Assembly: GCA_016841045.1 (NCBI GenBank)
Contig: JAENZX010000002.1
Span: 18,375-50,374, forward strand
Origin: Thermincola ferriacetica
GTDB taxonomy: Bacteria > Bacillota > Thermincolia > Thermincolales > UBA2595
Direction of reading: 5' to 3'
DNA length: 32,000 nt
Shown: positions 6,780 through 31,988 of the stretch, one piece after another
Layout: every line of letters begins with the position of its first letter
How positions within the stretch are numbered: the stretch's first letter is position 1
The notes under the pieces: model-generated
Databases searched by the model: none
What the model was told of the DNA's origin: nothing
Seen by the model: only the letters and a program-made list of their open reading frames with translations
Made by a program: the position numbers and the translations under genes

Positions 6780-7050
6780 TCAACTGGATAGTGCCACTAT
6801 GTGCTATGAAGGGGAGAGTAAGTATTGGGGAGGCTCCAGCGAACCCGGGGCAGTGTAAGCCGGGTGCTTGAAGCAATACCGAAAATCACCCCCGAGCTTT
6901 ACAGCTGAAACTTTAGTAAGCTGTAACGGCAGCAGCCGTTATCTGCAACCGTAAGTGCCGTGCAAATACATTGGTTCTACCGTGTTATTTGCCGGAATTT
7001 GGGTGGTACCGCGGGAATTATTCCCGTCCCTTGTGGGACGGGATTTTTTA
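6780..7050 (+). promoter_or_regulatory. T-box riboswitch leader, isoleucine specifier (AUC)
   Basis: Stem I carries GAGAGTAAG (GA/K-turn region) and an AGCGA bulge. The specifier loop is GAAA-ATC-A (about 6881-6889). The T-box sequence AATTTGGGTGGTACCGCG lies at 6996-7014. The terminator stem tcccgtccc/gggacggga (7022-7043) is followed by a T-run ending at 7049. Confidence 0.9.
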
Positions 7051-16359: not shown

Positions 16360-16414
16360 GTGTGAGGCTGTCGTGCGTCTAGCCAGCTGCCATCTTCCCA
16401 TTCTGGGATCGTAG

Positions 16415-16646
16415 AAAAGATTGAAACCGCAGAGGACGGAGAGAAAGAGTTTGGGGAGTGGCGTTGTGGGTCGGGATATATTGTCGAATAATGTCGGAAT
16501 TTTTGTCAAGGAAAGTGTTGATTTTTATCGAAGAATTAACAGTAGAACAAGAAAATGGAAGTTGGTAAATGAGAAATGTGTTGGATATGAGTGCAGTGAT
16601 GCCAGGGTAGGAAGGAAGGTTTTTAATCGCGGTTTAATCTCTTTTT
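16415..16646. mobile_element. Second MITE-like element of the same repeat family
   Basis: aaaagattgaaaccgcagagg (16415-16435) faces the inverted copy cgcggtttaatctcttttt (16628-16646). It lies directly 3' of the ABC-F gene. Confidence 0.45.
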
Positions 16647-16693
16647 CCTTTTCTTTGATGAGGCCAGCTTTTTTACTGTTCCTTTTTATTGGT

Positions 16694-17007
16694 GTCCATC
16701 CGTGTAATCCGTGGCTGATTTTTTATAGCCCCCGGATTTTCTGAGACTTTGTACCTTTGTAGTTGGGTTGTATAAGTAAATATGTATGTGAGGGAGGCTG
16801 TTTTGGTTGACGGTCTCCTTTTTATTTTGGGCAGGGCTTTAGGGGTTGGAATAGATTACCACAGGGCACAGAGGGCACAGAGAAAAAATTGTATGGGATG
16901 GGCTTTAGGGTCGATACAGCTGATGATGGCGCGGATGAACACGGATACAAGAGAGTGACGGGGTAGGGAAATGTTGTGGGGGGGCGGAAAAGATTGAACC
17001 GCAGAGG
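16694..17007. repeat. Cluster of short related repeats (CACGGAT / CACAGAG / CCGCAGAGG words)
   Basis: gtccatccgtgtaatccgtggc (16694-16715) is the inverted match of gcgcggatgaacacggatac (16929-16948). The tandem accacagggcacagagggcacagag lies at 16858-16882. A third aaaagattgaaccgcagagg lies at 16988-17007. Confidence 0.5.
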
Positions 17008-17543
17008 ATGAAAAAGTACGATGTAATGCTGAAAAATTTAATCAATACCGTACTTAACACAAATATTGGCCACCTATTTTTGAAGTGACCCTAAAAAGTT
17101 AAACAAAATTTATTAAGCAACCATACAGGAATGACTGCCAGCCTTGGTCAAAATGAATAATAAAGTCATATTGACCATTGACATACGTGGACGCGGACAT
17201 GTAGGAGCATATCTTCTCATGTAAATAACACATATTTGTTTAAATCTAATCTTATAAAAAGACTTTCTTCATGTAAGAAACTAAAATGTTTCATAATTGA
17301 AAAAAAGAGCGTTCATTAGGTGAATGTTACCCCTGACCGGTAGATTTATGGGAGTTAGTGGAATTTGCCGTATTGTAGATTTATATTTTCCGGTTCTTAA
17401 TGGTCAAAATTGAGGCCCGAATAACATTGTAATTGGTAGATTGAGGTGGTAAACTTAAACCGTACTATATGAACGAACAATATTCTATAATATTAAACGA
17501 AAGGGGTGAATATATTAAAGCAAATGTACTTAGGAAGGTAAAT

Positions 17544-17690: not shown

Positions 17691-18434
17691 ATGATTTTAT
17701 CAGTCAAAAAAGCTATGGATATTTTAGATTGCATTGACCAAAAAGGCAGAATGAGTCTTAAGGATCTAAGCAATCAGCTGGGCATGCCCAAGAGTACCGC
17801 CTGCCAACTGGCCCAAACACTTGAGGCCTGTGGGTATCTCCAACAGGATTCAGGTACAGGAGATTATTTTCTCTCGTACAAATTCTTCCGGATTGGTTAT
17901 GATATTCTGGAAAAGCTTGGTATTCGTGAATGTGTCTTGCCGGTTATTGAAAAGCTCAGCAAGGAAACCCAAGAAACCATTAATTTAAGCGTTCTGGATG
18001 AAGCTAAGGCATTATATATCGAAAAGATTGAGACTTCGCTAATTCATACCGGGATTAAGGTAGGCAGCCATGCACCGCTGCATTGTACAGCTTCCGGAAA
18101 AGCTATGTTGGCCAGCCTGCCCCGGGAAAAGATATCTGATGTCCTGGAGAAATGTGTACCTTTTGAAGTGTTCACGGAAAAAACTATAGTAACAGTTGAA
18201 GACCTGTTGAATGAATTGGAAGTGTGCCGCGACCAGGGTTATGCGTTATGCAAAGACGAGATAGCCAAGGGTGTTTATGCAGTTGGGGCAGTCATCCATG
18301 GTTATCCCGGCAGGGAAGCGGCGGCTCTGAGCATAGCAGGACCATCCAACAGGTTTACACCGGAAAGAATGTCTGAATTAATAGATCTCATTCTTGAAGC
18401 CTGTGAAGCAATATCCCGGAAATTCAAGGCCTGA
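17691..18434 (+). CDS. IclR family transcriptional regulator
   Basis: It has an N-terminal winged HTH (MSLKDLSNQLGMPKSTACQLAQTLEACGYLQQD) and a C-terminal IclR effector domain (HCTASGKAMLASLP...ALSIAGP). Confidence 0.9.
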   Translation: MILSVKKAMDILDCIDQKGRMSLKDLSNQLGMPKSTACQLAQTLEACGYLQQDSGTGDYFLSYKFFRIGYDILEKLGIRECVLPVIEKLSKETQETINLSVLDEAKALYIEKIETSLIHTGIKVGSHAPLHCTASGKAMLASLPREKISDVLEKCVPFEVFTEKTIVTVEDLLNELEVCRDQGYALCKDEIAKGVYAVGAVIHGYPGREAAALSIAGPSNRFTPERMSELIDLILEACEAISRKFKA

Positions 18435-18435
18435 T

Positions 18436-18510
18436 AAAAACCGTAATTAAGCCCGCCTCGCCAATTGACCGGCTTATTTACGGAAGCAGCCCAATACTGA
18501 CAGGGGCCTG
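18436..18510 (+). repeat. Conserved ~75-nt block, copy 2 (between iclR stop and the UbiD-family gene)
   Basis: Stem 18441-18453/18471-18483 (12 of 13 pairs) encloses the loop CGCCTCGCCAATTGACC. Two base pairs are compensatory relative to copy 1 (U-A to C-G and U-A to A-U). Confidence 0.5.
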
Positions 18511-18643
18511 GTTTCTTATTGCCATTTTGCTTCATTAGCTGATATATAAACACCCCGTATATACACTACCTGAACGAAAGGGGGGTAAATTTACTGGCTG
18601 CAAAAATGAGGCGGGCAGACAAAAACAAAAAGGAGGAATTCTA

Positions 18644-20116
18644 GTGAAAAGTCTTAATGACTGGTTAAAAAAAGTTGAAGAAATTGGTGAGTTGGTTAGG
18701 GTAAAAGCAGAAGTAGATCCGGTATTGGAAATGTCCACGGTAACTTATTTAAACGGTAAAGAAGTCGGCGGGCCGACACTTCTGTTTGAAAATGTTAAGG
18801 GACATCCCGGACATAAGTGTCTCTTTAATCCTTTTGGCAGCAGCTTAAACAGGTTTGCTCTGGCTATCAGGGAAGAACCTAATAAAAAGCCCATTGAACT
18901 GGTTAATATTTTAAAAGGAAAAATGAACAAGAAAATTGCGCCCAAAGAAATTGATGCTGCTAAAGCCCCTGTAAATCAGAATATAGACATCGGTGACGCA
19001 GTTGACGTTACCATATTCCCGGCTCCCCATATGTGGCCCCATGATGGTGGCAAATATATTGGTACCGCTGACTCTGTCATTACCATGGATCCCAATACCG
19101 GTAGAGTTAACCTGGGGACTTACAGACAGATGATCGAAGGCACTCAGCAGGTCGGTTACTATTCTTCTCCTGGTAAGGACACCCTGTTAGACAGGGAATT
19201 ATGGTGGGCTAAGGGTAAGCCGGCACCGGTTGCTGCAGTATACGGCAATGATCCGCTGATGTTCATGGTTTCAGCCACCTCCTTCCCCAAGGATGTGTCG
19301 GAATATGAATATGCCGGCGGAATTGCCGGAGAACCTATTGAAGTATTCAAGAGTGATATTACAGGACTCTTGCTGCCAGCTAACGCAGAGATTATTATTG
19401 AAGGTTTCTGTTACCCCGATAAGAATGCTGAGGAAGGTCCTTTTGGTGAGTTCCAGGGCTATTACGGCCGTCCAGGCGGTCCCACTCCCTATATCGAAAT
19501 CAAGGCTATCCGCTACCGTAACAATCCTGTTCTGACATCTGCCTTAATGGCTGATTGGCCTTCTAACGAATGCGGAGTAATGTGGGGCATGGCTAAAGCA
19601 GCTAAGGTTTGGCAAGATTTGGACCTCATGGGAGTTCCGGGAATCAAAGGAGTATGGTCACCTCCGGAAGCAGCTGGCTGGGGCTGGACAGTAGTCTCCA
19701 TTGAGCAAAGATATGCCGGACACGCTGCTCAGGTAGGAGCGTTGGCGGCACAATGTATGGGAGGGGCATATTTCAGCAAATATATAGTGGTCGTTGACGA
19801 AGACATAGATCCTTCAAACCTTTCCGACGTCATTTGGGCGATGGCTACCCGTTCGCGTCCGGCACAATCAATTGATATTTTGCGCGAAACCTGGAGTACT
19901 TACCTGGATCCCAGCTTAAATCCGGCTGAAATCAGACCGTGGGGCTCAAAGATCATCATAAACGCCTGTAAAGAATTTAAGTACATTAACAGCTGGAGTA
20001 AGCGTACCCGGTTAAGTAAACCTGTGTACAAAAAGGTTGCTGCAAGGTGGACGGAACTGGGTCTTAAAGGACAGGCTCCAGAAATTGAAGTCTTTGAAGA
20101 GGATGATAAGTACTAA
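18644..20116 (+). CDS. UbiD-family prFMN-dependent (de)carboxylase, paralogue 1 (490 aa)
   Basis: It shows UbiD-family hallmarks: GGPTLLFENVKG, VNLGTYRQ (N-x-G-x-Y-R) and EEGPFGEFQGYYG (E-x4-E acid/base motif). AAGGAGG lies 7 nt upstream of the GTG start. Confidence 0.9.
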   Translation: MKSLNDWLKKVEEIGELVRVKAEVDPVLEMSTVTYLNGKEVGGPTLLFENVKGHPGHKCLFNPFGSSLNRFALAIREEPNKKPIELVNILKGKMNKKIAPKEIDAAKAPVNQNIDIGDAVDVTIFPAPHMWPHDGGKYIGTADSVITMDPNTGRVNLGTYRQMIEGTQQVGYYSSPGKDTLLDRELWWAKGKPAPVAAVYGNDPLMFMVSATSFPKDVSEYEYAGGIAGEPIEVFKSDITGLLLPANAEIIIEGFCYPDKNAEEGPFGEFQGYYGRPGGPTPYIEIKAIRYRNNPVLTSALMADWPSNECGVMWGMAKAAKVWQDLDLMGVPGIKGVWSPPEAAGWGWTVVSIEQRYAGHAAQVGALAAQCMGGAYFSKYIVVVDEDIDPSNLSDVIWAMATRSRPAQSIDILRETWSTYLDPSLNPAEIRPWGSKIIINACKEFKYINSWSKRTRLSKPVYKKVAARWTELGLKGQAPEIEVFEEDDKY

Positions 20117-20281
20117 ACATTTGATTGATTGACAGCACCCCGGGATTCAGGAATTTCTTCTCCCGCATCCCGGGGGAATTACCTTATCCCAATAAATAGC
20201 GCCAGGGGGTTATTTGCAAACCGGCCCCAAAGAGTGGATTACCTTTGATAAATTCCAAAAGGCAAATTGGGGGGAATAGTG

Positions 20282-21586
20282 ATGAATGGTGGTATAGACA
20301 CAAAATCAAATGGTAATGTTTATTTTGAACGTGGCTACGGGATTGTCGATAGTCTGAAGAACCTCCCGCACAGTTTCAATATCAAGAACATTACGGCAGC
20401 TTTAATTGCCACAGTATTTAGTTTGGCCGGACCGATAATTTTATTAATTAAAGTAGCTAATGAGGCTCATTTAACTAATGAACAAACCGGTTCCTGGCTG
20501 ATGATGATTTATCTTGTCAGCGGTATCCTGATGGTTACACTAGCCCTGTATTACAGGCAGCCTATAGCTATTGCCTTTTCGTTACCGGGCATTGTAGTTA
20601 TTGGCGGCCTATTGAAAGTGTTTTCCCTGGAACAAATGGTCGCAGGTTATGTTTTTGGGGGGGCGATAATGCTTTTCCTGGGAGTGTCCGGTTTAATTAA
20701 AAAGGTAATCAAGTATTTGCCTGTACCAATTATCATGGGTATGATTGCTGGCGCGTTGTTTAGTTACGCCACCGGAATCATTACCTCAGTTCAAAAGGAT
20801 CCCCTGGGTGCTGGTTTAACATTAGCTGCCTTTTTAATAGGAGGTCTGTTGTTTAAACGTATACCCCCTCAACTTTTAGCTTTGGCAGTTGGTATAATCG
20901 TCAGCATATTCATTATGAAGTCAAAAATAGCTTCCGATGCAATGGGCTTCTATACTCCGGTCTTTTTTAAACCAGATTTTAGTTTTGCTGCGATAGTATC
21001 TGTCAGTGTACCGTTAGTCATGATGGAACTCGCTGATTTTTTAAAAGGTTACGGTATCCTGCGAGCTAACCAATACGATCCGCCTGTTAATAGCATGATA
21101 AATTCTACCGGGATATTCACAATGATTGCTTCCTTTTTCGGGGCGCATACCATTACTGTTGCCGGTCCGGTAACTGCGATAACTTCCTGTGAAGATGCCG
21201 GGCCACTGGAACACAGGTGGGTTGGAGGGTTTTTAAAAGGGGTAATCCAGATTTTGGTTGCCTTGCTCGGTGGAATTTTAGTTCCTTTTTTAAGGGCACT
21301 TCCTTCAACTGTTGCCGCTGTTTTGGCCGGTTTAGCAATGCTCAGCTTGTTTTTAGGGGCATTTGACGTAGCCTTTAATAAGGGCAGCAACTTTAAAGTA
21401 GGTGCATTTACCGCTTTTATCGTTGCATATTCGAATATCAGTATTTACAGCATTGGCTCTCCGGTATGGGCGTTAATATTTGGTGTGATAGTTTCCCTGA
21501 TTTTTGAAAGGGAAAACATCAAGTCTTTTTTAAATCCCTCTAGCTCAACGGAAGTACCAGCTGTACCGGTTATTAATGTGGATTAA
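20282..21586 (+). CDS. benE: BenE-family benzoate/aromatic-acid:H+ symporter-like membrane protein
   Basis: It is a polytopic membrane protein. Segments recall E. coli YdcO/BenE from memory (SWLMMIYLVSGILMVTLALYYRQPIAIAFSLPG; FKPDFSFAAIVSVSVPLVMM). ATG 20282 follows a G-rich RBS. Confidence 0.75.
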   Translation: MNGGIDTKSNGNVYFERGYGIVDSLKNLPHSFNIKNITAALIATVFSLAGPIILLIKVANEAHLTNEQTGSWLMMIYLVSGILMVTLALYYRQPIAIAFSLPGIVVIGGLLKVFSLEQMVAGYVFGGAIMLFLGVSGLIKKVIKYLPVPIIMGMIAGALFSYATGIITSVQKDPLGAGLTLAAFLIGGLLFKRIPPQLLALAVGIIVSIFIMKSKIASDAMGFYTPVFFKPDFSFAAIVSVSVPLVMMELADFLKGYGILRANQYDPPVNSMINSTGIFTMIASFFGAHTITVAGPVTAITSCEDAGPLEHRWVGGFLKGVIQILVALLGGILVPFLRALPSTVAAVLAGLAMLSLFLGAFDVAFNKGSNFKVGAFTAFIVAYSNISIYSIGSPVWALIFGVIVSLIFERENIKSFLNPSSSTEVPAVPVINVD

Positions 21587-21754
21587 TTATTTCCGCTGCC
21601 TTCAGGTAATATCAGACGTGCTTTCCTGGCAGCGAACAGAACCGACTGCTGCTGTTCGACTGCCCGGAAATTACCGCAACCAAATATACAAGGCACAGAA
21701 GTATATAACTTTGTCGTCAATGAATGAGGAAAAATAAACGAGGTGATATAGCTT

Positions 21755-22357
21755 ATGAAACGAATTGTTATTGCTATTTCAGGTGCTACAGGAGCTATTT
21801 ACGGAGTACGTCTGCTAGAAGCGCTGCAGTTACAAAAAAGCTTGGAAGTTCACCTTGTTATGAGTCCGTGGGCGGAAAAAACCATTGCCTTAGAGACTAG
21901 GTACGGAATTGACCAGGTGAAAAAAATGGCTGCACACGTCCATGATTACCGGAACCAAGGTGCCCCCATTGCCAGCGGCTCTTTCGGTGTGGATGGAATG
22001 GTAGTCATCCCTTGCAGTATGAAAACCCTGTCCGGTATAGCTCATGGCTATGCTGATAACCTTATCGGCCGAGCTGCCGATGTAATGCTTAAAGACAGAA
22101 AACGGTTGATTCTTGTTCCCAGGGAAACTCCGCTCAATGAAATTCACCTGGAAAATATGCTCAAACTCACCAGAGCAGGTGTTATAATGGCCCCGCCGAT
22201 GCCGGCATTTTACAACCTGCCCACCAGTTTAGACGACATTATTAACCATCAGATTTCCCGGATTCTTGATTTATTAAATATTGAAAATCAACTGACCCGA
22301 CGCTGGGGAAATGTTTATATAGCCGATGATGAGCAAAAAGAGGCTTTGAATTATTAA
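21755..22357 (+). CDS. ubiX: Flavin prenyltransferase UbiX (prFMN synthase)
   Basis: It has MKRIVIAISGATGAIYGVRLLEAL, VIPCSMKTLSGIA and LILVPRETPL. The length is 200 aa, and it is the only UbiX gene in the window. Confidence 0.93.
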   Translation: MKRIVIAISGATGAIYGVRLLEALQLQKSLEVHLVMSPWAEKTIALETRYGIDQVKKMAAHVHDYRNQGAPIASGSFGVDGMVVIPCSMKTLSGIAHGYADNLIGRAADVMLKDRKRLILVPRETPLNEIHLENMLKLTRAGVIMAPPMPAFYNLPTSLDDIINHQISRILDLLNIENQLTRRWGNVYIADDEQKEALNY

Positions 22358-22408
22358 TAAAAAGAAAAAGTAGAAAATTTTACTAAGCTGGTTAAGGAGG
22401 CGTCAAAA

Positions 22409-23983
22409 ATGAGTGAGACCGAATTGGTAATCCCTGAAAAATTAAATATAGCCGTAGAGTTGGTCGATAAAAACCTTCAAATGGGTAGAGGAAAAAAGGT
22501 CGCAATTTATTACAAGGATCAAACATTAACTTATGAAGATGTCTACAAGTCGGTAAATAGAACCGGTAACGCTTTGAAAAATCTGGGTATTGGTATGGAG
22601 GACCGGGTGTTACTTCTGCTTTTTGATAGCCCGGAGTTTGTTGCCAGTTTTTTGGGGGCAATAAAAATTGGGGCAGTACCAATTCCTACTAATACTCTCT
22701 TAAAAGCCAGGGACTATCTGTATTTGTTAAATGACAGCCGGGCAAAAGTAGCTGTAGTCAATGAAGCTTTGGCACCGTTAATTGAAGAAGTGAGGAGTGA
22801 ACTCCTGTATCTGCGGCATTTAGTAGTAGTTGGTAACGCAGGTCCTAACCAACTGTCTTATGAACAATTGGTGGACGATGCCTGCGATGAATTAGTACCT
22901 GCGGATACCAGCAAAGATGATCCTGCGTTTTGGCTGTATAGTTCGGGTACTACCGGTTTTCCCAAAGGAACAGTCCATTTACAGCATGACATCCTGGTAG
23001 CATGCGAACTATATGGTAAAGGAATTCTAAAAATTAATGAAAACGACATTACTTTTTCCATTGCCAAACTCTTTTTCGCATATGGTTTGGGAAACGGATT
23101 ATATTTCGCTTTTTATGTGGGCGCTTCAACCGTGCTTTATCCCGACAGGTTCCTTCCACTAGTATATTTCGATATAATCAAACAATATAATCCGACTTTG
23201 TTCTTCGGTGTCCCTACCGCTTATGGTGCGATGCTCCAGGTAGCTGAAAACATTCTGAATCTAGATTTGAGTTCTGTACGGTACTGTGTTTCTGCCGGGG
23301 AAGCTTTGCCAAAGGCGATTTTTGAAGCGTGGAAGAAGAAATTTAATTTACTTATTTTAGATGGTATTGGGTCTACTGAGATTACTCATATCTTTATTTC
23401 CAACAGACCCGATGATTACAAAGGAGGGACTTCCGGTAAGCCTGTGCCGGGGTATGAAGCCAAGATTATAGACCAGGATGGCAACAAGTTACCTGATGGA
23501 GAGATGGGCACCCTGATGGTTAAAGGTGATAGTATAGCAGCTTATTATTGGAACAGGCATGAGAAAACCAAAGAAACTTTCTTCGGTCCCTGGATAAATA
23601 CCGGAGATAAATATTATGTGGATGATGAAGGCTATTACACATATGTAGGCCGGGGCGATGACATGATTAAGGCTGGTGGGATTTGGGTATCTCCCATTGA
23701 GGTAGAAAACACAATTATGGAGCATAAGGCTGTTCTTGAATGTGGGGTTATTGGTGCAGTTGATAATGACAGCCTGGTGAAACCCAAGGCTTTTGTAGTA
23801 CTAGAAGAAGGGTTTAAGGCGTCAGAGGAATTGACCACGGAGATTCAGAAATATGTTAAGGAACGGATAGCACCGTATAAGTATCCCCGCTGGATAGACT
23901 ATGTCACAGAACTGCCTAAAACAGCTACAGGTAAGACCATGAGGTTTATGCTGAGGAGACTTGATGAAGAAAAACAAAGTTGA
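22409..23983 (+). CDS. Benzoate-CoA ligase family (aromatic acid:CoA ligase, AMP-forming)
   Basis: It has the AMP-binding motif LYSSGTTGFPKGTVH, then GEALP, NTGDKY...GRGDDMIKAGGIWV and a C-terminal PKTATGKTMRF. The N-terminal pattern IPEKLNIAVELVD is typical of benzoate/hydroxybenzoate-CoA ligases. Confidence 0.85.
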   Translation: MSETELVIPEKLNIAVELVDKNLQMGRGKKVAIYYKDQTLTYEDVYKSVNRTGNALKNLGIGMEDRVLLLLFDSPEFVASFLGAIKIGAVPIPTNTLLKARDYLYLLNDSRAKVAVVNEALAPLIEEVRSELLYLRHLVVVGNAGPNQLSYEQLVDDACDELVPADTSKDDPAFWLYSSGTTGFPKGTVHLQHDILVACELYGKGILKINENDITFSIAKLFFAYGLGNGLYFAFYVGASTVLYPDRFLPLVYFDIIKQYNPTLFFGVPTAYGAMLQVAENILNLDLSSVRYCVSAGEALPKAIFEAWKKKFNLLILDGIGSTEITHIFISNRPDDYKGGTSGKPVPGYEAKIIDQDGNKLPDGEMGTLMVKGDSIAAYYWNRHEKTKETFFGPWINTGDKYYVDDEGYYTYVGRGDDMIKAGGIWVSPIEVENTIMEHKAVLECGVIGAVDNDSLVKPKAFVVLEEGFKASEELTTEIQKYVKERIAPYKYPRWIDYVTELPKTATGKTMRFMLRRLDEEKQS

Positions 23984-24125
23984 TGATTAATACCTAAACC
24001 TTAAATACCTCATAAAGCCGCTTAAGTATAAATTTTAACCTTTTATCCAGTGAATTGTTGACAGTAGCGTAATAATAGAATGGTTTAATGACAGGTATAC
24101 TTAGATTACGCTGGGAGTGACTAAA

Positions 24126-26093
24126 TTGGAAAGTGTAATCTCCATTGGTGTTATCTCAACGCATTCTGACCTGACATCTATGTGTCGTCAAGTTGGGGAT
24201 GCACCGGGGTATAGAATAATGCTCTATGAAGGAGCGCTGGATAGTTCACTGCCCGGGCTGGAATACTTCGAGAAAAAGGGTGTCGAAGTTGTAGTAACCA
24301 CCAGGGGCAATAATTTATTTGTTAAGGACCGTACTAAAATACCGGTTATAGCCGTACCTGAAAACAATTTTGATATTTTTGTTCCGTTGGCCAGAGTTCT
24401 GAAACAATACGGGACCAAAGCAACAATATTTTTTTACCGGGAATACCCGAAAGGCTTTTCTGAAATACCGGAAATCCTAGGCTTTGAGCCAAAGGTTAAA
24501 GTATTTCAGGATTCCAGCCATTTGGAAGGCATATTGGAAGAACTGCAGGGTAGTGATCAGGTCATTGTTGGGGGCGGTTACGTTTGCCAGGCGGCCTCTG
24601 CAGTGGGGTTTATTACAGAGCAGGTTAACCTGAGCAGAGAATCATTTGTTTCCGCGCTGGAGACTGCCAAAGAACTGGCAATGGTACGCCGCCAGGAAAG
24701 GAGAGAGTCCTTCCGGTTAAAAGCCATTTTAGACTGGGCGCATGAAGGAATAGTGGCCACAGATGAAAACGGGGTTATTACCCTGTTTAATAAGGCTGCG
24801 GAGAAGATTTTCAGTTTGACCGGTGAAGTTTTGGGGCATGGCTGTCAGGAGGTGCTCCCTGCCGCAAAACTACAGGAAGCAATTAGCACCGGAGAGGCAT
24901 CGATTGGGGAAATTATCCGGATAGGCAACGATGATGTAGCTGCCAACCGGGTTCCTATAATTAATGATGAGCAAATTTCCGGAATGGTTGCGACTTTTCA
25001 ACCGGTTAAGGCTATTCAGGAGATTGAGCAGAAAATCAGAAGAGGACTCTTGCCTGAAAAAAAGGGCACCCGTTACAGCTTTTCAGATATCAAAGGCCGC
25101 AGTCCGGCTATCCGTATTGCGGTAAAATTGGCCACCAGGTATGCTGATACTGATGAGGCTGTTCTGATTCTTGGGGAAAGCGGTACCGGCAAAGAATTAT
25201 TTGCTCAAAGCATTCATGGCGCATCGAAGCGGAAAAATAAGCCGTTCATGGCAGTTAACTGTGCGGCCATACCAGGGAATCTGTTGGAGAGCGAGTTGTT
25301 TGGCTATACCGAAGGGGCCTTTACCGGAGCTCGAAAAGGCGGCAAACCGGGGTTGTTCGAGCTGGCCCACGAGGGCAGCTTATTTTTGGACGAAATCGGT
25401 GATATGCCAATTGATACCCAGGCTAAACTATTGAGGGTAATTCAGGAGAAAGAAGTACGCCGGGTAGGCGGAGAACAGACGGTCAGGATCGATGTCCGTA
25501 TAATTGCTGCTACTCATAAAAATTTATTGGAGTGCGTTAGGTCTGGCGAGTTCAGGGAAGATTTATTTTATCGATTGGATGTCCTGCGCTTAAACACACC
25601 TTCATTGCTTGAACGTAAGGAAGATATACCTCTCCTGATAATGGAGATCTTAAACCGGATTGCTGACCTCTCCGTAAAACAAAAACGAGCCATTGTTGCA
25701 GCATTATCCCAGCGCTCAGATTATGAATGGCCGGGAAATGTCCGGGAACTGGAGAACATCGTCCGGCGGCTTGCTGTTTTAACTAATGGTCTGACTGAAC
25801 CGGAAGCAAGAGCAGTGGCCAGGCAGGCCCTTAACCGGTTCTATGGGGGTAAGGTAAGATATTTGCCACAGAATAACAGTCATCTTACCTTTCAAGTGCC
25901 GGTAGACGATAAACTAAATCAAATTATTTCAAAAGTTGAGAAGGAAGTCATCCGGCAAATGGTCCTGCTCTGCGGCGGAGACCGGAAACTGGCCGCCAAA
26001 AGGTTAGGGATCGGCCGTACTACTCTTTGGCGTAAAAGTGCTGAAGATCAAGAGGAAGATAATGCTTTTGAAATAGAACAGGGTAAGACGTAA
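24126..26093 (+). CDS. Sigma54-dependent transcriptional activator (PrpR_N-like sensor, PAS, AAA+, Fis-type HTH)
   Basis: It has Walker A GESGTGKE, the GAFTGA loop, Walker B LFLDEIGDM, a PAS segment (HEGIVATDENGVITLFNKAAEKIF) and a C-terminal HTH AAKRLGIGRTTLWRK. TTG 24126 is better spaced from GGGAG than the track's GTG 24117. Confidence 0.9.
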   Translation: MESVISIGVISTHSDLTSMCRQVGDAPGYRIMLYEGALDSSLPGLEYFEKKGVEVVVTTRGNNLFVKDRTKIPVIAVPENNFDIFVPLARVLKQYGTKATIFFYREYPKGFSEIPEILGFEPKVKVFQDSSHLEGILEELQGSDQVIVGGGYVCQAASAVGFITEQVNLSRESFVSALETAKELAMVRRQERRESFRLKAILDWAHEGIVATDENGVITLFNKAAEKIFSLTGEVLGHGCQEVLPAAKLQEAISTGEASIGEIIRIGNDDVAANRVPIINDEQISGMVATFQPVKAIQEIEQKIRRGLLPEKKGTRYSFSDIKGRSPAIRIAVKLATRYADTDEAVLILGESGTGKELFAQSIHGASKRKNKPFMAVNCAAIPGNLLESELFGYTEGAFTGARKGGKPGLFELAHEGSLFLDEIGDMPIDTQAKLLRVIQEKEVRRVGGEQTVRIDVRIIAATHKNLLECVRSGEFREDLFYRLDVLRLNTPSLLERKEDIPLLIMEILNRIADLSVKQKRAIVAALSQRSDYEWPGNVRELENIVRRLAVLTNGLTEPEARAVARQALNRFYGGKVRYLPQNNSHLTFQVPVDDKLNQIISKVEKEVIRQMVLLCGGDRKLAAKRLGIGRTTLWRKSAEDQEEDNAFEIEQGKT

Positions 26094-26115
26094 ATAAATA
26101 TGTATCTATTTTTAA

Positions 26116-26154
26116 GGCGGCAGGTATGCAAAACGGTACCTGCCGCCTTTTTTT
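26116..26154 (+). terminator. Strong rho-independent terminator after the sigma54 activator gene
   Basis: ggcggcaggta (26116-26126) pairs with tacctgccgcc (26137-26147), followed by T7. Confidence 0.85.
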
Positions 26155-26384
26155 GGCAACCGGTTGGTATGGTACGGGCAACTCATTGAACCTGCTTTGA
26201 GCTGATACTGTCGCAGCGTCGACGCCTGGTACAGAACTAAACTGTGAAGAGCTTAGCGGTCAGATAGTGATTATTATTGGTCCGAAATCTCCCTTTTTTG
26301 AATTTCCTCTTAATTCAATTCCAGCATTAGAACACTTTACTTTTAAATCTGACAAAAATGCTAATTAGTTCCATTAATGGGCTG

Positions 26385-26408
26385 ATGTGTTTATAAGATG
26401 AAACACAT
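26385..26408. promoter_or_regulatory. Candidate upstream activator site (palindrome) for the sigma54 activator
   Basis: This is a perfect inverted repeat, ATGTGTTT-N8-AAACACAT, centred about 140 bp upstream of the -24/-12 element. Confidence 0.4.
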
Positions 26409-26532
26409 TTCATGCTAGTCACGGAAGCCTTTGGTTGGAAATTTTCAGCCAAACCTTTTGGGCATGTAAAAACGTTATCTGAATACCGATATTTGTTTTT
26501 TGAGGTTCGTTAAAGGCCTTTCTGAATTTAGT

Positions 26533-26548
26533 TGGCATCAGGCTTGCT
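26533..26548 (+). promoter_or_regulatory. Sigma54 (-24/-12) promoter of the TAXI-TRAP / UbiD2 operon
   Basis: TGGCAT-caggc-TTGCT has the exact consensus GG-N10-GC spacing (consensus TGGCAC-N5-TTGCW). It lies about 155 nt upstream of ATG 26704 and next to a sigma54 activator gene. Confidence 0.75.
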
Positions 26549-26703
26549 ATTATTAATAGTTGTCATTAAAACTTAAACGAATGGGAGGTCTTCGAACAAT
26601 GGGAATGAACCATCGTATTTTTAAATCTTGAATTTAATTAATACCGAAAATTAATTATTCCTCATTCAGGAAACTGCAGTTATTTATGAAGGGAGGCTAA
26701 AAT

Positions 26704-28638
26704 ATGACTTGGCTGAGAAGAATTTTTGGTTTGTTGGAGGCTGGCTGCCACCGTAAACCTACCGGTTATTGGTGGCATATAACGGCGGGGTTAGCATTAA
26801 TTACTGCCGTTTTTGAGGCCTGGTCGTTGAGTGTTGGCAAGTTGAACCCATATATCCAAGGTGTGATATTCTTAAGTCTTATGCTGCCGATAGTCTTTGT
26901 TGCCCATGGTGTACGACCGGATAGCAAGGCAGCACCTTCAGTGGTAGATATTTTTCTGGTGGTCTCTTCATTAGCAGCTGGTTTATACATTTTTGTCAAC
27001 CGCGAATATTACCTTAACCGGTGGCCGCTGGCCAGCCAACTGACGGCGTGGGACCTGATTATTGGCGCCTTATTGATCATAATCGCTTTTGAGGCCTGCC
27101 GTCGTACTTTTGGAGCAGGTCTGACAAGTGTGGTGACCCTTATGATACTCTACGCCTTGTTCGGTCACCTTCTGCCTGGAGCGTTTTCTCATTCTTATAT
27201 CTCCTGGGAAGGCTTTATAGACCAGATAGCCTTCACCATAAACGGGATAATGGGCTCACCTGTACAGACTGCAGCGACGTATATCTTTGTTTTTGTCAGT
27301 TTTGGTCTTTTCCTCGATGCCTGCGGAGGTGGAGACTTTTTCTTCCGGCTGGCTAATGCCGCCGCTGCCAGCACAATAGGGGGGCAGGCTAAAGTTACCG
27401 CCATTGCCTGTGGGTTGTATGGAATGATTTCGGGCAGCCCTACCTCTGATACAGTAACTATAGGTTCCTTTGCAATTCCGAATTTGAAACGGGCAGGTTA
27501 TGATCCAATATATGCCGGGGCGGTAACAGCCGTTGCGGCTACCGGTGGGGCGGTAATGCCTCCTGTTATGGGAGCGGCAGCGTTTTTGATGGCTGAGCTT
27601 ACCGGAATCCCGTACATGGAAATCGTTGTTGCGGCAATCATACCGGCAATGTTCTATTACCTGGGAGTTTTGATGCAGGTTCATTTTCATACCTTAAAGT
27701 TTAATCTTCATAGCTCTACATCCGCTGAGTCCCCAACCCCTCTAAGGGAAGTCCTAAAGCAAAGTTACTACTTATTGCCCCTGGTCATTCTGGTCGTTTT
27801 TATACTAAAAGGCTTCACACCCATTTTTGCGGGTTTCATTGCCATCATCTCCACTGTATTGATTAGTTGGGCCAGAAAAGAAACCCGGATGGGTCCGCGC
27901 AAAATTTTGGATGTTGTTATCAGGAGCGGGTATGGGGTAGCCCCTCTGGCAGCAGTTACGGCCGCGGCTGGCATAGTAGTAGGTGTAATCATGATAACAG
28001 GGCTGGCAAGTAAGTTTATGGTGTTAATAACTGCTTTATCCGGTGGATTTATCCCCCTGGCCCTGGTTGTTGGCGCAGTGGTACTAATTATTTTAGGAAT
28101 GGGCATGCCTGTATCTCCGGTATATATTCTGGGGGCGGTGCTGGTTGCTCCTGTCCTAATAAATCTTGGATTCCCCCTAAAACTCAGCCACTTATTCATC
28201 GTATATTTCGCCTCTCTCTCGGCAATAACCCCGCCGGTTGCCGTAGCGGCCTATGCGGCAGGGGGGATTGCCAAAGCAGATCCTATGGCCATTGGATGGC
28301 GAGCCTGTCGTTTAGGGATTGTGGCATACCTGGTACCGTTTTTCTTTATGTTTGAACCTGCCCTGATACTGGAGGGTAACCCAACTGAAGTGGTCTGGGC
28401 CGTATTTACTGGAATTATCGGTGTTATCGCAATTTCAGCAGGGATAGAGGGATGGCTGAGAAAGAAAATGGGTACATGGGAGCGGGTTTTGGTGATTTGT
28501 GGCGCCTTACTGGCCATGTACCCAGGAATTATAACTGACATTATTGGGTTTGTTTTACTAGCTGTTGGTTTTTTCCGGCAGTTTGCCGGCCCACGTCATA
28601 TAACAATAGCTACAGGGGGTGAGAAAGTAAACGAGTGA
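26704..28638 (+). CDS. TAXI-type TRAP transporter fused permease (4TM/12TM DctQ-DctM fusion)
   Basis: This is a 644-aa polytopic protein. The size and architecture match the fused permease that partners TAXI receptors. GGGAGG lies 7 nt upstream of the ATG. Confidence 0.85.
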   Translation: MTWLRRIFGLLEAGCHRKPTGYWWHITAGLALITAVFEAWSLSVGKLNPYIQGVIFLSLMLPIVFVAHGVRPDSKAAPSVVDIFLVVSSLAAGLYIFVNREYYLNRWPLASQLTAWDLIIGALLIIIAFEACRRTFGAGLTSVVTLMILYALFGHLLPGAFSHSYISWEGFIDQIAFTINGIMGSPVQTAATYIFVFVSFGLFLDACGGGDFFFRLANAAAASTIGGQAKVTAIACGLYGMISGSPTSDTVTIGSFAIPNLKRAGYDPIYAGAVTAVAATGGAVMPPVMGAAAFLMAELTGIPYMEIVVAAIIPAMFYYLGVLMQVHFHTLKFNLHSSTSAESPTPLREVLKQSYYLLPLVILVVFILKGFTPIFAGFIAIISTVLISWARKETRMGPRKILDVVIRSGYGVAPLAAVTAAAGIVVGVIMITGLASKFMVLITALSGGFIPLALVVGAVVLIILGMGMPVSPVYILGAVLVAPVLINLGFPLKLSHLFIVYFASLSAITPPVAVAAYAAGGIAKADPMAIGWRACRLGIVAYLVPFFFMFEPALILEGNPTEVVWAVFTGIIGVIAISAGIEGWLRKKMGTWERVLVICGALLAMYPGIITDIIGFVLLAVGFFRQFAGPRHITIATGGEKVNE

Positions 28639-28673
28639 TATTTTAAAAATTATTAATGAAGGGGGAAGGGTTT

Positions 28674-29723
28674 ATGAATAAAAAGAAATTAAGCATTTTT
28701 TTGGCCTGTCTGGTACTGATACAGCTGCTAATGTTCGGTTGCAGCGGCAATGGCAGCAGTGGAGCCGGGAATACAGGCTCATCTTCAAAAGGGCAGCAAA
28801 AAGATACCTCGTCAGGAAAGGGTTTACCGCCGGTTAAAATAACTCTAGCTGGTGGTTCTGTTGGGGGCAGTTGGGCGGCTATTGGGGAAGGGATCGGAGA
28901 AGCAATTCGCAGAGTTGCCCCGGGCTCAGCCTTTGGCTACCAACCGGGACAGGATGGGGCTAATGCGATTACTGTCAATACCGGTCAGACAGAATTAGGA
29001 TTTCTGTTTAGTGTTATGGCCAAGGCGGCATATGAGGGAAATGAACCCTATAAACAAAAAATCAGTGATTTAAGGGCCATAGGGACCATGGGCCCGCTCA
29101 CTTATCAAATGATAGTTTCAGAAAAGTCGGGTATAAAAACTTACGCAGACCTGAAAACGAAGCCGGTCACCCTGGCAGTTAATACCAGGGACGGTACTAT
29201 GGAACTTGCCAGCCGTATAGTTTTGGAGGAACACGGAATTACCTATGAGGATATTGAAAAAAGAGGAGGTATAGTCCTCTACCTTCCCAGCGGCAATGCT
29301 CTGGATCTGATAAAAGACGGCCGTGCAGATGGACGAACGGGAATAACTAATGCTCCGGAGGCAAAGGTTAACGAAGCTGCAGCCACAACCAAGCTTGTAC
29401 TGGTACAGCCTGACCCCGCGGCTATTGAGAGAAGTATTAAAAGGCTGGGAGTTACACCTAAGTTAATTAAGAATGGGACTTATCCGTTCCAAACAGCTGA
29501 CATACCTAGTTTTGATGTGCCGATTACTATTGTCGCCAGTAAAACTTTACCTGACCAGGTAGCTTATACTGTTGCCAAGGCACTTGTGGAGCAGCTGCCT
29601 TATTTAAAAACAGTGGTTCCCAAACAGTTGGCAAATGATACCCCGAAAAGCATTGTACAGGCCAATATCCCCCTGCATCCTGGCGCAGAAAAATTCTACA
29701 GGGAAAAAGGCCTGATTAAATAA
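28674..29723 (+). CDS. TAXI-family TRAP solute-binding lipoprotein
   Basis: A signal peptide with lipobox LMFGC is followed by a Gly/Ser-rich linker. The TAXI-like core contains ITLAGGSVGGSWAAIGEGIGEAI...ELGF and LHPGAEKFYREKG. ATG 28674 follows a GGGGGAAGGG RBS. Confidence 0.85.
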   Translation: MNKKKLSIFLACLVLIQLLMFGCSGNGSSGAGNTGSSSKGQQKDTSSGKGLPPVKITLAGGSVGGSWAAIGEGIGEAIRRVAPGSAFGYQPGQDGANAITVNTGQTELGFLFSVMAKAAYEGNEPYKQKISDLRAIGTMGPLTYQMIVSEKSGIKTYADLKTKPVTLAVNTRDGTMELASRIVLEEHGITYEDIEKRGGIVLYLPSGNALDLIKDGRADGRTGITNAPEAKVNEAAATTKLVLVQPDPAAIERSIKRLGVTPKLIKNGTYPFQTADIPSFDVPITIVASKTLPDQVAYTVAKALVEQLPYLKTVVPKQLANDTPKSIVQANIPLHPGAEKFYREKGLIK

Positions 29724-29746
29724 AAAAAAAAAGAAAGGATGGTCTT

Positions 29747-31351
29747 ATGAAAGGGTATTATGATTTACATGAACATCTTGAAAATCTAGAAAAGAAAGGC
29801 TTACTCATTCGGGTAACCCGGGAAATCAACAAAGATACCCAGTTACACCCCCTTGTGCGCTGGCAGTATCGGGGAGGATTAAGTGATGCTGAACGCAAGG
29901 CATTTCTCTTTGAAAATGTTGTGGACAGCAAAGGTAAAAAATACTCAATTTCCGTGGCGGTGGCTGCTTTGGCAGGAAACAGGGAGATATATGCAGCCGG
30001 TTTGCAATGCTCATTGGAAGAAGTAAGGGAAAAATGGGAAAGGGCAATGGCCGGTCCTATAAAGCCTATTCTGGTGGAAAATGCACCGGTAATGGAAGAA
30101 GTCCATATGGGAGCAGAACTGCTTGCCGAAGGAGGGGGATTTGACGAATTTCCGGTACCTATCTCCACCCCCGGTTTTGACAATGCTCCCTATACAACCT
30201 GCACCCACTGGATTACGAAAGACCCGGATACCGGAATCCCTAACATCGGTAACTATAGGGGGCATATTAAGGGCCGTAACAAAATTGGCGTTTTCCCCTG
30301 CGGATTAGGTCAGGATATTTTGGTACACTGGCAAAAATGCAAGGACAGGGGAATTCCTTTGCAGGCTGCTTTGGTTGTAGGGGCTCCACCGGTAGTTTCA
30401 TATGCCGCGGTTCAAAAAGTTCCTTACGGACTGGATGAAATATCCATTGCCGGTGGGTTGGTAGGAGCCCCCATTAGAATGGCAAAGTGTAAAACAGTTG
30501 ACCTGGAAGTTCCGGCTGATGCGGAAATTGTTTTTGAAGGCATTATTCGTACTGATGTAATGGAACCTGAAGGACCCTTTGGGGAATCTCATGGCTACAT
30601 GCATCCCCGCCAGTTAAACCCCTTTATGGAAATTAGCTGTGTTACCCATAAGAAAAAACCAATCTGGGTATCCTTCATCAGCCAGGTTACTCCAAGCGAA
30701 AGCAGTGTAATTAAAAAAATCGGTTATGAGCCATTATTTACAGAGTATTTACAGAAAACACTAAGTATCAAAAGCGTTATTAAGGTATCGATGCATGAAC
30801 CTCTTACCAATTTACGTAAGGTGATTGTTATTCAGATGCGCAACCCCAAAGAAGTTGATGTTTGGCGGGCTCTGAACGCTTCCGCGATCTTTCATCAGGG
30901 TGTTGGCAAGATTATCATTGCTGTTGATGAGGATATTGACCCGGAAAACATGGATGCTGTCATGTGGGCTATGAGCTACAGGATGAAACCTCATAAGGAT
31001 GTGGATATTGTCAAAGGTTTGGTCAAGGGGCATGCTCCCCCGTTTAGCGGAGCCAGTGACAGCCAGGATGTGGCAGTACACGCTGACCCGGCCAATGAAT
31101 CTGCTCTATTGATAAATGCCGTGTTAAAGGAGCCCTTCCCACCGGTTTCACTTCCGAAAAAGGAATTTATGGAGGAAGCAAAAAAAATATGGGAAGAATT
31201 AGGACTGCCTAAAATTACTCCTGAGGCCCCCTGGTATGGATATTCCCTGGGCCAGTGGGACAGTGAACTGGAAGAAGAGGCAGAGTTGGCGCTTAAAGGG
31301 GATCACTATCTTACCGGCGAGAAGTTAGCAAAAAGACAGGTCAAAGTATAA
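29747..31351 (+). CDS. UbiD-family prFMN-dependent (de)carboxylase, paralogue 2 (534 aa)
   Basis: It has DLHEHLENLEKKGLLIRV, FLFENV, PNIGNYRG (N-x-G-x-Y-R) and PEGPFGESHGYMH (E-x4-E). It is about 44 aa longer than paralogue 1, with an extended C-terminus. Confidence 0.9.
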   Translation: MKGYYDLHEHLENLEKKGLLIRVTREINKDTQLHPLVRWQYRGGLSDAERKAFLFENVVDSKGKKYSISVAVAALAGNREIYAAGLQCSLEEVREKWERAMAGPIKPILVENAPVMEEVHMGAELLAEGGGFDEFPVPISTPGFDNAPYTTCTHWITKDPDTGIPNIGNYRGHIKGRNKIGVFPCGLGQDILVHWQKCKDRGIPLQAALVVGAPPVVSYAAVQKVPYGLDEISIAGGLVGAPIRMAKCKTVDLEVPADAEIVFEGIIRTDVMEPEGPFGESHGYMHPRQLNPFMEISCVTHKKKPIWVSFISQVTPSESSVIKKIGYEPLFTEYLQKTLSIKSVIKVSMHEPLTNLRKVIVIQMRNPKEVDVWRALNASAIFHQGVGKIIIAVDEDIDPENMDAVMWAMSYRMKPHKDVDIVKGLVKGHAPPFSGASDSQDVAVHADPANESALLINAVLKEPFPPVSLPKKEFMEEAKKIWEELGLPKITPEAPWYGYSLGQWDSELEEEAELALKGDHYLTGEKLAKRQVKV

Positions 31352-31361: not shown

Positions 31362-31390
31362 AAGGGCCGTCCTGCATGGACGGCCCTTTT
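31362..31390 (+). terminator. Rho-independent terminator after UbiD paralogue 2
   Basis: aagggccgtcc (31362-31372) pairs with ggacggccctt (31378-31388), with a T-run at 31387-31390. Confidence 0.7.
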
Positions 31391-31429
31391 CGACTCCGTT
31401 TTGATGTTTACCGGGAAGGTGGCTTTCTA

Positions 31430-31988
31430 ATGAACGTTAGAATGGAGGATAAACATCAAAAATCATTTAGGGAAATGGTTTTGATTACAATTGGGCACAG
31501 TTTAACTCACTGGTACCCGGCAACATTTTTTCTTTTGCTCCCCCTGATCGGAAAGGAACTGGGATTGAGCTATGGCCCAATTGGCTTTAGTTTGACTCTT
31601 CAGTACGTCGTTAGTTCACTTTTTAATCTGCCGGGGGGGAATGTTGGCGGATATTGTAGTAAAAAAAGGGCTATTTAATGGCGGAAGCTTTATTCTGGGT
31701 AGTATTCCATATTTTTTCATGAGTTTTACCAACAGTTTTTTGATGTTGCTACTGTGTGTTGCGTTGGTAGGCATGGGAAATAATTTGTGGCATCCCACTG
31801 CAATCTCCACATTATCACGACAATACCCTAAACAAAAGGGATTCGTACTTTCCATCCATGCAATGCGGGCAAACATCGGGGATGCTGTAGCGCCATTAAC
31901 CATCGGTGTTTTGTTAGGGTTTCTCAGTTGGAAGCAGGTGGTTGTTTGGAATGTGATTCCAGGAGTGGCTCAGCCTTCCGGTCAATGA
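31430..31988 (+). pseudogene. MFS transporter gene interrupted by a +1 frameshift in a G7 run (possibly also truncated)
   Basis: ORF 31430-31678 ends ...LFNLPGGNVGG..*, and ORF 31641-31988 starts MLADIVVKKGL. Deleting one G from GGGGGGG (31633-31639) gives LPGGMLADIVVKKG, an MFS motif-A-like loop. The stop at 31986-31988 comes after only about 186 codons. Confidence 0.6.

Follow-up and report, generated by a model that had tools for sequence, protein, structure and literature searches.

A predicted sigma-54-dependent operon joining a TAXI-TRAP transporter to a UbiD-family decarboxylase of an uncharacterised clade

Introduction

Oxygen-independent addition and removal of carboxyl groups on aromatic rings is mainly the work of UbiD enzymes, for which there is also a demand in biocatalysis, to fix CO2 and to upgrade plastic monomers. 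Here we analyze a 32,000-nucleotide stretch of DNA from Thermincola ferriacetica (assembly GCA_016841045.1, contig JAENZX010000002.1, positions 18,375 to 50,374 of the forward strand; hereafter the window), and in particular a group of genes that encodes a sigma-54 activator, a TAXI-TRAP transporter and a UbiD-family protein, UbiD2.

Several described systems come close to this locus. The o-phthalate cluster of Aromatoleum aromaticum EbN1 encodes UbiX, phthaloyl-CoA decarboxylase (PCD), CoA transferases, a TAXI receptor and a fused TRAP permease (review PMC13040137). HmfF/HmfG of Pelotomaculum thermopropionicum and Cupriavidus basilensis include the closest relative of UbiD2 with a solved structure; HmfF takes a free aromatic-type di-acid to the mono-acid, and a CoA ligase then activates the mono-acid. 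PrpR and other PrpR_N-type activators of Firmicutes share the domain order PrpR_N, PAS, AAA+ and HTH, and adjoin their presumed target operons. The PrpR_N domain of PrpR senses 2-methylcitrate, a tricarboxylate, and the few TAXI receptors whose structures have been solved bind amino acids and C4/C5 acids.

Results

An open reading frame (ORF) map and profile searches recovered the activator, the TRAP permease, the TAXI receptor and UbiD2 between positions 24117 and 31351, a segment that we call module 2. The activator gene is closed by an intrinsic terminator, a -24/-12 promoter opens the next transcription unit, three tightly spaced genes follow, and a second terminator ends the unit (Table 1). 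We are confident that an operon of this architecture serves, in general terms, uptake plus decarboxylation. The complete statement, that the operon is substrate-inducible and that a free (hetero)aromatic di- or polycarboxylate is the substrate of UbiD2, we regard as evenly balanced. Upstream lies module 1 (17691-23983), which comprises genes for an IclR regulator, the paralogue UbiD1, BenE, UbiX and a benzoate-CoA ligase.

A first-pass annotation of the same DNA had proposed this layout, with a strong terminator after the activator (26116-26154), a -24/-12 promoter at the head of the next unit, a fused TRAP permease and a TAXI lipoprotein, a UbiD gene 23 nt later and a terminator. Every element was found where it had been placed or a few bases off, and the proposal of a separate TAXI-TRAP and UbiD unit driven by sigma-54 and an enhancer-binding protein is supported.

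Table 1. Coordinates and properties of the features of module 2 and its surroundings (window positions)
Feature	Coordinates	Strand	Properties
UbiX flavin prenyltransferase, module 1	21755..22357	+	TIGR00421 251.6 bits, NF004685 261.8 bits
Benzoate-CoA ligase family enzyme, module 1	22409..23983	+	TIGR02262 638.5 bits, cut-off 375
Sigma-54 enhancer-binding activator	24117..26093	+	658 aa; GTG start; PrpR_N, PAS, AAA+, Fis-type HTH
Activator terminator, intrinsic	26114..26155	+	14-bp stem 26114-26149 + UUUUUUU; -27.2 kcal/mol, z = -4.7
Palindrome ATGTGTTT-N8-AAACACAT	26385..26408	.	perfect 8-nt arms; ~125-150 nt upstream of -24 element
Palindrome TTTGGTTGGAAATTTTCAGCCAAA	26430..26453	.	15-nt overlapping arms, 87% complementary; ~80-100 nt upstream of -24 element
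Sigma-54 -24/-12 promoter (predicted)	26533..26548	+	TGGCAT-N5-TTGCT; GG-N10-GC spacing
Fused TRAP permease (DctQ-like + DctM-like)	26704..28638	+	644 aa; TIGR02123 TRAP_fused 568.8 bits, cut-off 320.65
TAXI solute-binding lipoprotein	28656..29723	+	TIGR02122 169.3 bits, cut-off 84.35
UbiD2, prFMN-type decarboxylase by sequence	29747..31351	+	534 aa; begins 23 nt past TAXI stop codon
Operon terminator, intrinsic	31362..31392	+	11-bp GC-rich stem 31362-31388 + UUUU; -23 kcal/mol, z = -4.6
MFS transporter gene, frameshifted near 31640-31675	31439..31967	+	leaves window; tblastn with L031 MFS protein

The fused permease shows about 16-17 hydrophobic segments in its hydropathy profile. Its gene and that of the receptor are adjacent, 17-35 nt apart, which places the pair among the TAXI-TRAP transporters. 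The true start of the receptor is likely ATG 28674 rather than 28656, and the N-terminus, MNKKKLSIFLACLVLIQLLMFGC-SGNGSSG, fits a lipoprotein signal in which the lipobox LMFGC is followed by a Ser/Gly linker. An identical gene order, permease-receptor-UbiD2, recurs at locus L005 (loci gathered for comparison carry L numbers), with UbiD2 89%, permease 79% and receptor 76% identical to their counterparts in the window. A fumarate-reductase-like flavoprotein and Fe-S pair precedes the L005 operon, and no activator is visible on its 10-kb contig. In Paradesulfitobacterium ferrireducens (L003), where the receptor is 63% and the permease 69% identical to those of the window, the order runs receptor, UbiD1-like gene, TctCAB, cupin and UbiD2 orthologue. 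The orthologous TRAP permease of L003 (1623-3232) is broken into two ORFs, 418 and 135 aa long, and may be a pseudogene or reflect an assembly error.

UbiD2 scores over the Pfam cut-offs for UbiD_N (25.6 bits), UbiD (174.4 bits) and UbiD_C (51.6 bits), and slightly under that of TIGR00148 (228.5 against 244.85). Residues N166, R171, H194, E231 and E275-GPFG-E280 do not vary among 37 orthologues and align with HmfF and VdcC; the metal ligands were assigned by the Fdc1 numbering. The Glu-Arg-Glu network was defined as E277-R173-E282 in A. niger Fdc1 (PMC5818171). Given that this network and the ligands of the metal and of prenylated flavin mononucleotide (prFMN) are invariant among the orthologues, UbiD2 is likely to be catalytically competent. 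Among solved structures its best sequence match is PtHmfF (6h6x/6h6v; E = 1e-47, 32% identity), followed by VdcC (3e-33), Fdc1 (3e-27), UbiD (~1e-26) and PCD 8oz5 (7e-22). An AlphaFold (AF2) model built on the 37 orthologues (pLDDT 84.3, pTM 0.85) likewise retrieved PtHmfF first in Foldseek (E = 8e-37), with UbiD structures at ~1e-33 to 1e-37, and PCD was not within its top 50 matches. Some 95 residues at the C-terminus form an extension that the clade conserves; in the model it consists of a flexible linker and then three helices.

Two candidate assignments of UbiD2 were rejected. The histidine that confers furan specificity on HmfF (H296/297; PMC7976604) aligns to Ser319 of UbiD2, within the motif ISQVTPSESS that is invariant across the UbiD2 clade, and the loss of this residue together with an identity of 32% rules out orthology with HmfF. 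The first-pass annotation had taken the size of the protein, ~60 kDa, to suggest a phthaloyl- or isophthaloyl-CoA decarboxylase. This suggestion fails, since BLASTP puts identity to the EbN1 PCD (WP_011255033, plasmid NC_006824) at 28% with 13% gaps, the multiple alignment puts it at 24%, and the match to 8oz5 is far behind that to HmfF. Together with the occurrence of PCD as a separate gene (below), these values rule out membership of the PCD family, the comparison set being EbN1 WP_011255033 and T. chlorobenzoica 8oz5/8pmk, with the isophthaloyl-CoA decarboxylase (IPCD) of S. aromaticivorans, WP_028893368, outside it.

A search with UbiD2 returned at least 8000 UbiD-family matches at E <= 1e-20, of which the best 120 were all members of the clade, at 62-89% identity. 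Across 104 aligned UbiD proteins from 90-odd loci, identity to UbiD2 was 50-89% for members of the clade and at most 33% for the other UbiDs compared; the members are also at least 50% identical among themselves. With so clear a gap in identity, UbiD2 is best placed in a separate, uncharacterised UbiD clade. Close relatives of equal length are very numerous, in Desulfobacterales, Chloroflexota, Bacillota, Tectomicrobia and others; the clade as a whole is found in Desulfobacterota, Chloroflexota, Bacillota and soil Proteobacteria.

Orthologue loci were gathered by a metagenome scan with the alignment (a scan of the genome collection with the single protein gave 4 loci), their ORFs were called and clustered, and the clusters were named with Pfam and NCBIfam. 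The resulting census covers 42 non-redundant loci in which the UbiD2 orthologue is 60% or more identical and has two or more neighbours within 6 kb. Transporter genes lie within 6 kb in half of them (21/42; TTT or TAXI-TRAP in 14, MFS in 9) and a further UbiD paralogue in 16/42. A class II aldolase-like protein is present in 12/42, cupins in 10/42 and a molybdenum enzyme of the dimethyl sulfoxide (DMSO) reductase family in 7/42. CoA ligases or transferases are found within 6 kb in only 2 of the 42 loci and UbiX in only one; supply of prFMN in trans thus seems to be the norm. A part for the neighbouring molybdenum enzyme in the conversion of gallate via pyrogallol to phloroglucinol was rejected, since among solved structures the enzyme matches acetylene hydratase best (E = 2.5e-72) and pyrogallol transhydroxylase only at 1e-13.

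The best named relatives of the aldolase-like neighbour are PhtC, a 3,4-dihydroxyphthalate decarboxylase (NCBIfam, 81 bits, under cut-off), and Mlr6791 (PDB 2z7b), a 3-hydroxy-2-methylpyridine-4,5-dicarboxylate decarboxylase. Both decarboxylate (hetero)aromatic ortho-di-acids. UbiD1-like paralogues (36-41% identical to UbiD1 of the window) accompany UbiD2 orthologues in seven loci, and fumarate-reductase-like flavoproteins adjoin the orthologues in both L005 and L007, with the Fe-S subunit in L005. PCD orthologues, 49-70% identical to EbN1 PCD, stand as separate genes beside UbiD2 orthologues in L001, L006, L011 and L029, from which it follows that UbiD2 probably fills a role other than that of PCD. 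In L011 the PCD gene adjoins two family-III CoA transferases. In L001, a contig from a metagenome-assembled genome of Bacillota whose UbiD2 is 82% identical, it adjoins UbiX and a succinyl-CoA-synthetase-like ligase. The L001 segment 2139-6437 encodes a two-subunit ligase (with a frameshift in the alpha subunit) and UbiX besides a PCD orthologue that shares 69% identity with that of EbN1, and resembles an o-phthalate module of a Gram-positive bacterium that relies on an ADP-forming type of ligase.

More distant relatives from soil bacteria (47-56% identity) typically have xanthine-dehydrogenase-family hydroxylases, TctC and UbiX as neighbours. On a plasmid of Neorhizobium petrolearium (L097, 2302-15267) two xanthine-dehydrogenase-family molybdenum hydroxylases flank a relative of 48% identity, at a locus that also holds GntR, UbiX and TctC genes. 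This context suggests that an aerobic branch of the clade may act on N-heteroaromatic carboxylates. L097 and the soil tier may be related to XCDC (LA1_0150), the decarboxylase of the lumazine pathway; the amidase-type isomerase of that pathway was not found at the Neorhizobium locus. A separate observation concerns the sediment contigs L021 (1509-1940), L045 and L057, where an archaeal-type CTP-dependent riboflavin kinase is encoded directly upstream of an IclR regulator and the UbiD2 orthologue; it may supply FMN locally for prFMN synthesis.

The sigma-54 activator appears intact. It starts at GTG 24117, in the same frame as the TTG 24126 of the first-pass annotation, and its Pfam domains are PrpR_N (71.5 bits), PAS, Sigma54_activat (PF00158, 234.9 bits), AAA_lid_14 and HTH_8. 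The translation contains the Walker A motif GESGTGKE, the (E)GAFTGA loop and the Walker B motif LFLDEIGD. Its scores fall under the equivalog cut-offs of PrpR (TIGR02329, 376.4 against 499.2 bits; NF011953, 349.9 against 703) and of PrdR (402 against 795 bits), and we therefore consider that it shares with PrpR only the type of sensor. The sensor half (residues 1-320) is rare: a search of 5.8 billion proteins gave just four homologues of it at E <= 1e-10. Two of these are close, one in L096 (59% identity) and one in Pelotomaculum isophthalicicum (57%), the latter adjoining a CitMHS/MatC-type carboxylate carrier at a contig end. Positions 1-3500 of L096 form a partial counterpart of module 1, in which a UbiD1-like gene and UbiX (77% identical to UbiX of the window) precede the orthologous activator. 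Consequently the activator travels with the UbiD1/UbiX module, and for this reason modules 1 and 2 are probably one functional island.

The promoter sequence TGGCATCAGGCTTGC (26533-26547) is the sole match to TGGCAC-N5-TTGC with at most one mismatch in the 32-kb window, and it carries one mismatch. Shuffled sequences lead one to expect 1.83 such matches in the whole window on both strands, and ~0.02 on one strand of the 610-nt gap in which it sits, ~380 nt past the activator terminator. L096 has, past its orthologous activator, a GG-N10-GC element as in the window (TTGGCAAGAAGATTGCTATATTAAT at 3680-3694), and the TATTAAT that follows the -24/-12 element recurs there as well. A TTGGCA that overlaps the promoter is also a weak sigma-70-like -35 match (9 of 12), and sigma-70-like matches in this region are no commoner than in shuffled sequence; the conservation in L096 supports reading the element as a sigma-54 promoter rather than as a weak sigma-70 one. 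Transcription is predicted to start near 26559, which would leave a leader of ~145 nt, and a search of this leader for riboswitches and leader RNAs matched no Rfam family. By their placement 80-150 nt upstream, as is usual for such sites, the two palindromes are candidate binding sites of the activator. The one at 26385..26408 is not conserved in the alignment of the window with L096, and no convincing upstream palindrome is shared by the two.

Module 2 has neither UbiX nor a CoA ligase of its own, and the first-pass annotation had it depend on module 1 for the cofactor. The module-1 UbiX, 7.4 kb upstream of UbiD2 and the only source of prFMN in the window, presumably serves UbiD2 in trans, in keeping with the rarity of UbiX in the census. 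That annotation had also allowed that the module-1 ligase might activate the substrate to a CoA ester, which is unlikely in view of how seldom CoA-activating genes accompany the orthologues. As a member of the benzoate-CoA ligase family the enzyme fits better with activation of the product, and it would thus be a possible consumer of the monocarboxylate released by UbiD2. The best solved relative of UbiD1 is 7pda (E = 1e-79). A UbiD, a UbiX and a benzoate-CoA ligase in a Thermincola-related host are reminiscent of the putative benzene carboxylase cluster abcA-bzlA-ubiX.

The remaining features of the window indicate a host among the Bacillota. Upstream genes, ylmH, ileS and others, are typical of the tail of the dcw cluster in Firmicutes, ileS is preceded by a T-box leader, and the TAXI receptor is a lipoprotein. 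Among named relatives, the isoleucyl-tRNA synthetase comes nearest to those of HGW-Firmicutes-14 (81%), HGW-Firmicutes-8 (80%), Phosphitispora sp. TUW77 (79%) and Thermincola potens (74%). The T-box leader (6797-7034, 125 bits) is the sole Rfam match in the window. Between an ABC-F gene and module 1 lies a non-coding segment, 16360-17020, of unusually high GC skew (0.41), which holds two copies of AAAAGATTGAA(A)CCGCAGAGGA spaced ~575 nt apart, and GGGCACAGAG as a tandem pair. Past the UbiD2 terminator, the MFS gene is broken: an MFS protein encoded near the UbiD2 orthologue of L031 matches it by tblastn with residues 11-89 in frame 2 and residues 77-186 in frame 3. The gene may be that of an older importer now in decay, its place taken by the TAXI-TRAP system, or the break may be a sequencing error.

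Discussion

We propose that a PrpR_N/PAS sensor would bind a carboxylate effector, either the substrate or the product, and that the activator would then bind the palindromes 80-150 nt upstream and remodel sigma-54 RNA polymerase. The TAXI lipoprotein would capture the acid outside the cell, the permease would import it at the expense of an ion gradient, and UbiD2, loaded with prFMN through the UbiX of module 1, would remove one carboxyl group from the free acid. The mono-acid would probably be passed to the benzoate-CoA ligase of module 1 and enter benzoyl-CoA-type metabolism. Effector, ligand, substrate and metabolic hand-over are inferred. The most likely substrate would be a benzene or hetero-aromatic di- or polycarboxylate, on the model of HmfF and its substrate furan-2,5-dicarboxylate. 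An aromatic di-acid had already been named in the first-pass annotation; the idea remains plausible, although not for the reasons given then, and is carried instead by the PhtC/HMPDdc-like decarboxylases, PCD modules and TTT transporters near the orthologues and by the sensor homologue in P. isophthalicicum.

However, this proposal should be read with some caution, since several observations weigh against it. The evidence on the substrate is nearly all guilt by association from orthologues, and the operon in the window itself has neither the aldolase-like nor the cupin partner. The receptor is no more than 25-35% identical to any receptor with a known structure or ligand or an informative gene context. 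The substrate of HmfF is not transferable to UbiD2 because of the 32% identity and the change of the specificity histidine to serine. Decarboxylation of unactivated phthalate as the free acid is chemically hard, and known anaerobes use CoA esters (PMC13040137). On the regulatory side, the activator may belong to module 1 as much as to module 2, because in L096 it follows the UbiD1-like/UbiX pair, and rpoN is not among the genes of the window and would lie outside it. Moreover, no sigma-54 promoter with at most one mismatch is present in L005, the closest TAXI-UbiD2 relative, or in L003, and the intergenic regions upstream of the transporters do not align. Because these relatives are without a promoter match, control by sigma-54 would appear to be lineage-specific and not conserved across the TAXI-UbiD2 lineage.

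Among the alternatives, one that we consider unlikely is that UbiD2 acts on a (hetero)aromatic mono-carboxylate, of hydroxybenzoate, pyrrole, indole or purine type, to give a neutral product in place of a CoA-ligase substrate, or that it works in the carboxylating direction. Characterised UbiDs mostly act on mono-acids (VdcC, AroY, HudA, InD), and aromatic mono-acids can also be carried by TRAP and TTT systems. In addition, the xanthine-dehydrogenase-family hydroxylases beside the soil relatives (7 of 34 loci, and the Neorhizobium locus) resemble the context of the lumazine pathway, where a UbiD forms xanthine by decarboxylation of a xanthine carboxylate (PMC12391406). Against this, the nearest relative, HmfF, takes a di-acid, the recurrent partners of the clade are ortho-dicarboxylate decarboxylases, TTT transporters and PCD modules, and a benzoate-CoA ligase and a BenE transporter are encoded next door.

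The EbN1 cluster, which pairs a TAXI-TRAP system with UbiD and UbiX, invites a second explanation: that the transporter imports a phthalate isomer, which the module-1 ligase turns into its CoA ester and which UbiD2, as a phthaloyl-, isophthaloyl- or terephthaloyl-CoA decarboxylase, then takes to benzoyl-CoA. Genes for UbiX and for a CoA ligase of aromatic acids do adjoin the operon, the sensor of the activator has a homologue in P. isophthalicicum, and UbiD2 orthologues share loci with true PCD modules. We nevertheless hold this to be quite improbable. The distance of UbiD2 from PCD in sequence and structure and the separate PCD genes beside its orthologues speak against it, as do the CoA-activating genes in only 2 of 42 loci, and the known isophthalate ligase is phenylacetate-CoA-ligase-like (PMC9516798), whereas that of module 1 is of the benzoate-CoA ligase family. 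Equally doubtful is the idea that UbiD2 decarboxylates aliphatic di- or tricarboxylates with an alpha,beta double bond, acids like aconitate, mesaconate or fumarate, by Fdc1-type 1,3-dipolar cycloaddition: the few structurally solved TAXI receptors, with their amino acid and C4/C5 acid ligands, are distant from that of the window, the PrpR_N domain of PrpR senses a tricarboxylate, the orthologues often stand beside TTT tricarboxylate-type transporters and in L005 and L007 beside fumarate-reductase-like flavoproteins, but UbiD2 is nearer to the hexameric (hetero)aromatic branch (HmfF, VdcC, UbiD) than to Fdc1 (1e-47 against 3e-27), and its neighbours point to aromatic catabolism (PcaR-type IclR, gentisate-dioxygenase-like cupins, PhtC-like decarboxylases, PCD, benzoate-CoA ligase).

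Returning to a free aromatic di- or polycarboxylate as substrate, a bolder version, which we think improbable, would make the UbiD2 clade the missing enzyme for CoA-independent decarboxylation of free benzene and pyridine polycarboxylates in anaerobes. Candidate reactions would be terephthalate or isophthalate to benzoate and benzene-tricarboxylates to phthalates, and spore dipicolinate would be a further candidate substrate. The clade enzyme would here have a high-affinity TAXI-TRAP importer of its own and answer to a rare carboxylate-sensing sigma-54 activator, and its product would feed the neighbouring benzoate-CoA ligase. If true, this would explain why the clade occurs beside PCD modules and yet is distinct from them, and why its nearest relative takes furandicarboxylate, which in structure is analogous to terephthalate. 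It would also explain why the anaerobic terephthalate pathway is still without a genetic definition (PMC13040137).

The operon is an ordinary catabolic module, yet it flags a large, conserved UbiD clade without a characterised member that is repeatedly associated with carboxylate importers, with a second type of aromatic di-acid decarboxylase and with true PCD modules. A compact unit of importer, receptor and enzyme with a dedicated activator offers a direct route to the substrate. Should a phthalate isomer or an aromatic polycarboxylate prove to be handled as the free acid, schemes of anaerobic aromatic-acid degradation would need revision.

Comparison with the described systems shows what is shared and what is not. 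The first-pass annotation had held a TAXI and UbiD operon under sigma-54 control to be undescribed. The pairing itself is known from the EbN1 o-phthalate cluster (plasmid 2, SptAB), where a TAXI receptor and a fused permease are likewise encoded beside a UbiX-dependent UbiD, and where the logic is the same, import of an aromatic acid followed by loss of one carboxyl. The sigma-54 layer alone, in contrast, appears to be unreported, and no TRAP or decarboxylase regulon was found in the sigma-54 catalogue of the Clostridiales (PMC6615313). Identities of 39% for the permease and 31% for the receptor (the EbN1 receptor ranks third among the matches of the window receptor in plasmid records) are too low for the specificity to be transferred. 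The two loci also differ in that the decarboxylase of the window is from another UbiD clade, that its operon is without a CoA transferase, that permease, receptor and decarboxylase form a single three-gene operon under sigma-54 and enhancer-binding control, and that the host is a Gram-positive anaerobe with a lipoprotein receptor. No CoA-activating enzyme, SptAB or a phthalate or isophthalate CoA ligase, is encoded in the operon, the nearest ligase being in another transcription unit.

HmfF has the same catalytic and cofactor residues as UbiD2, but the identity of the two is under the level of orthology, the specificity histidine is replaced, and the HmfF chain of 448 aa lacks the C-terminal extension. 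Genes for a furoyl-CoA dehydrogenase (of xanthine-dehydrogenase type) were not found in the window, and with them the link to hmfABCDE is missing. As for the regulator, the window activator resembles PrpR-type activators in domain order, in its position beside a presumed target operon and in an effector that is presumably a carboxylate; it differs from PrpR and PrdR in scoring under both cut-offs, in its rare sensor half, and in a target that is a transporter-decarboxylase operon and not prpBCDE or prd.

In conclusion, since the features that define the PCD and HmfF families were looked for in UbiD2 and not found, the module of the window would seem to belong to neither the EbN1-phthalate nor the HmfF enzyme family, though working alike. 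What is new here is that the UbiD belongs to a clade with no characterised member, that transporter and enzyme share one compact operon, and that this operon is predicted to be controlled by a rare PrpR_N-type sigma-54 activator.

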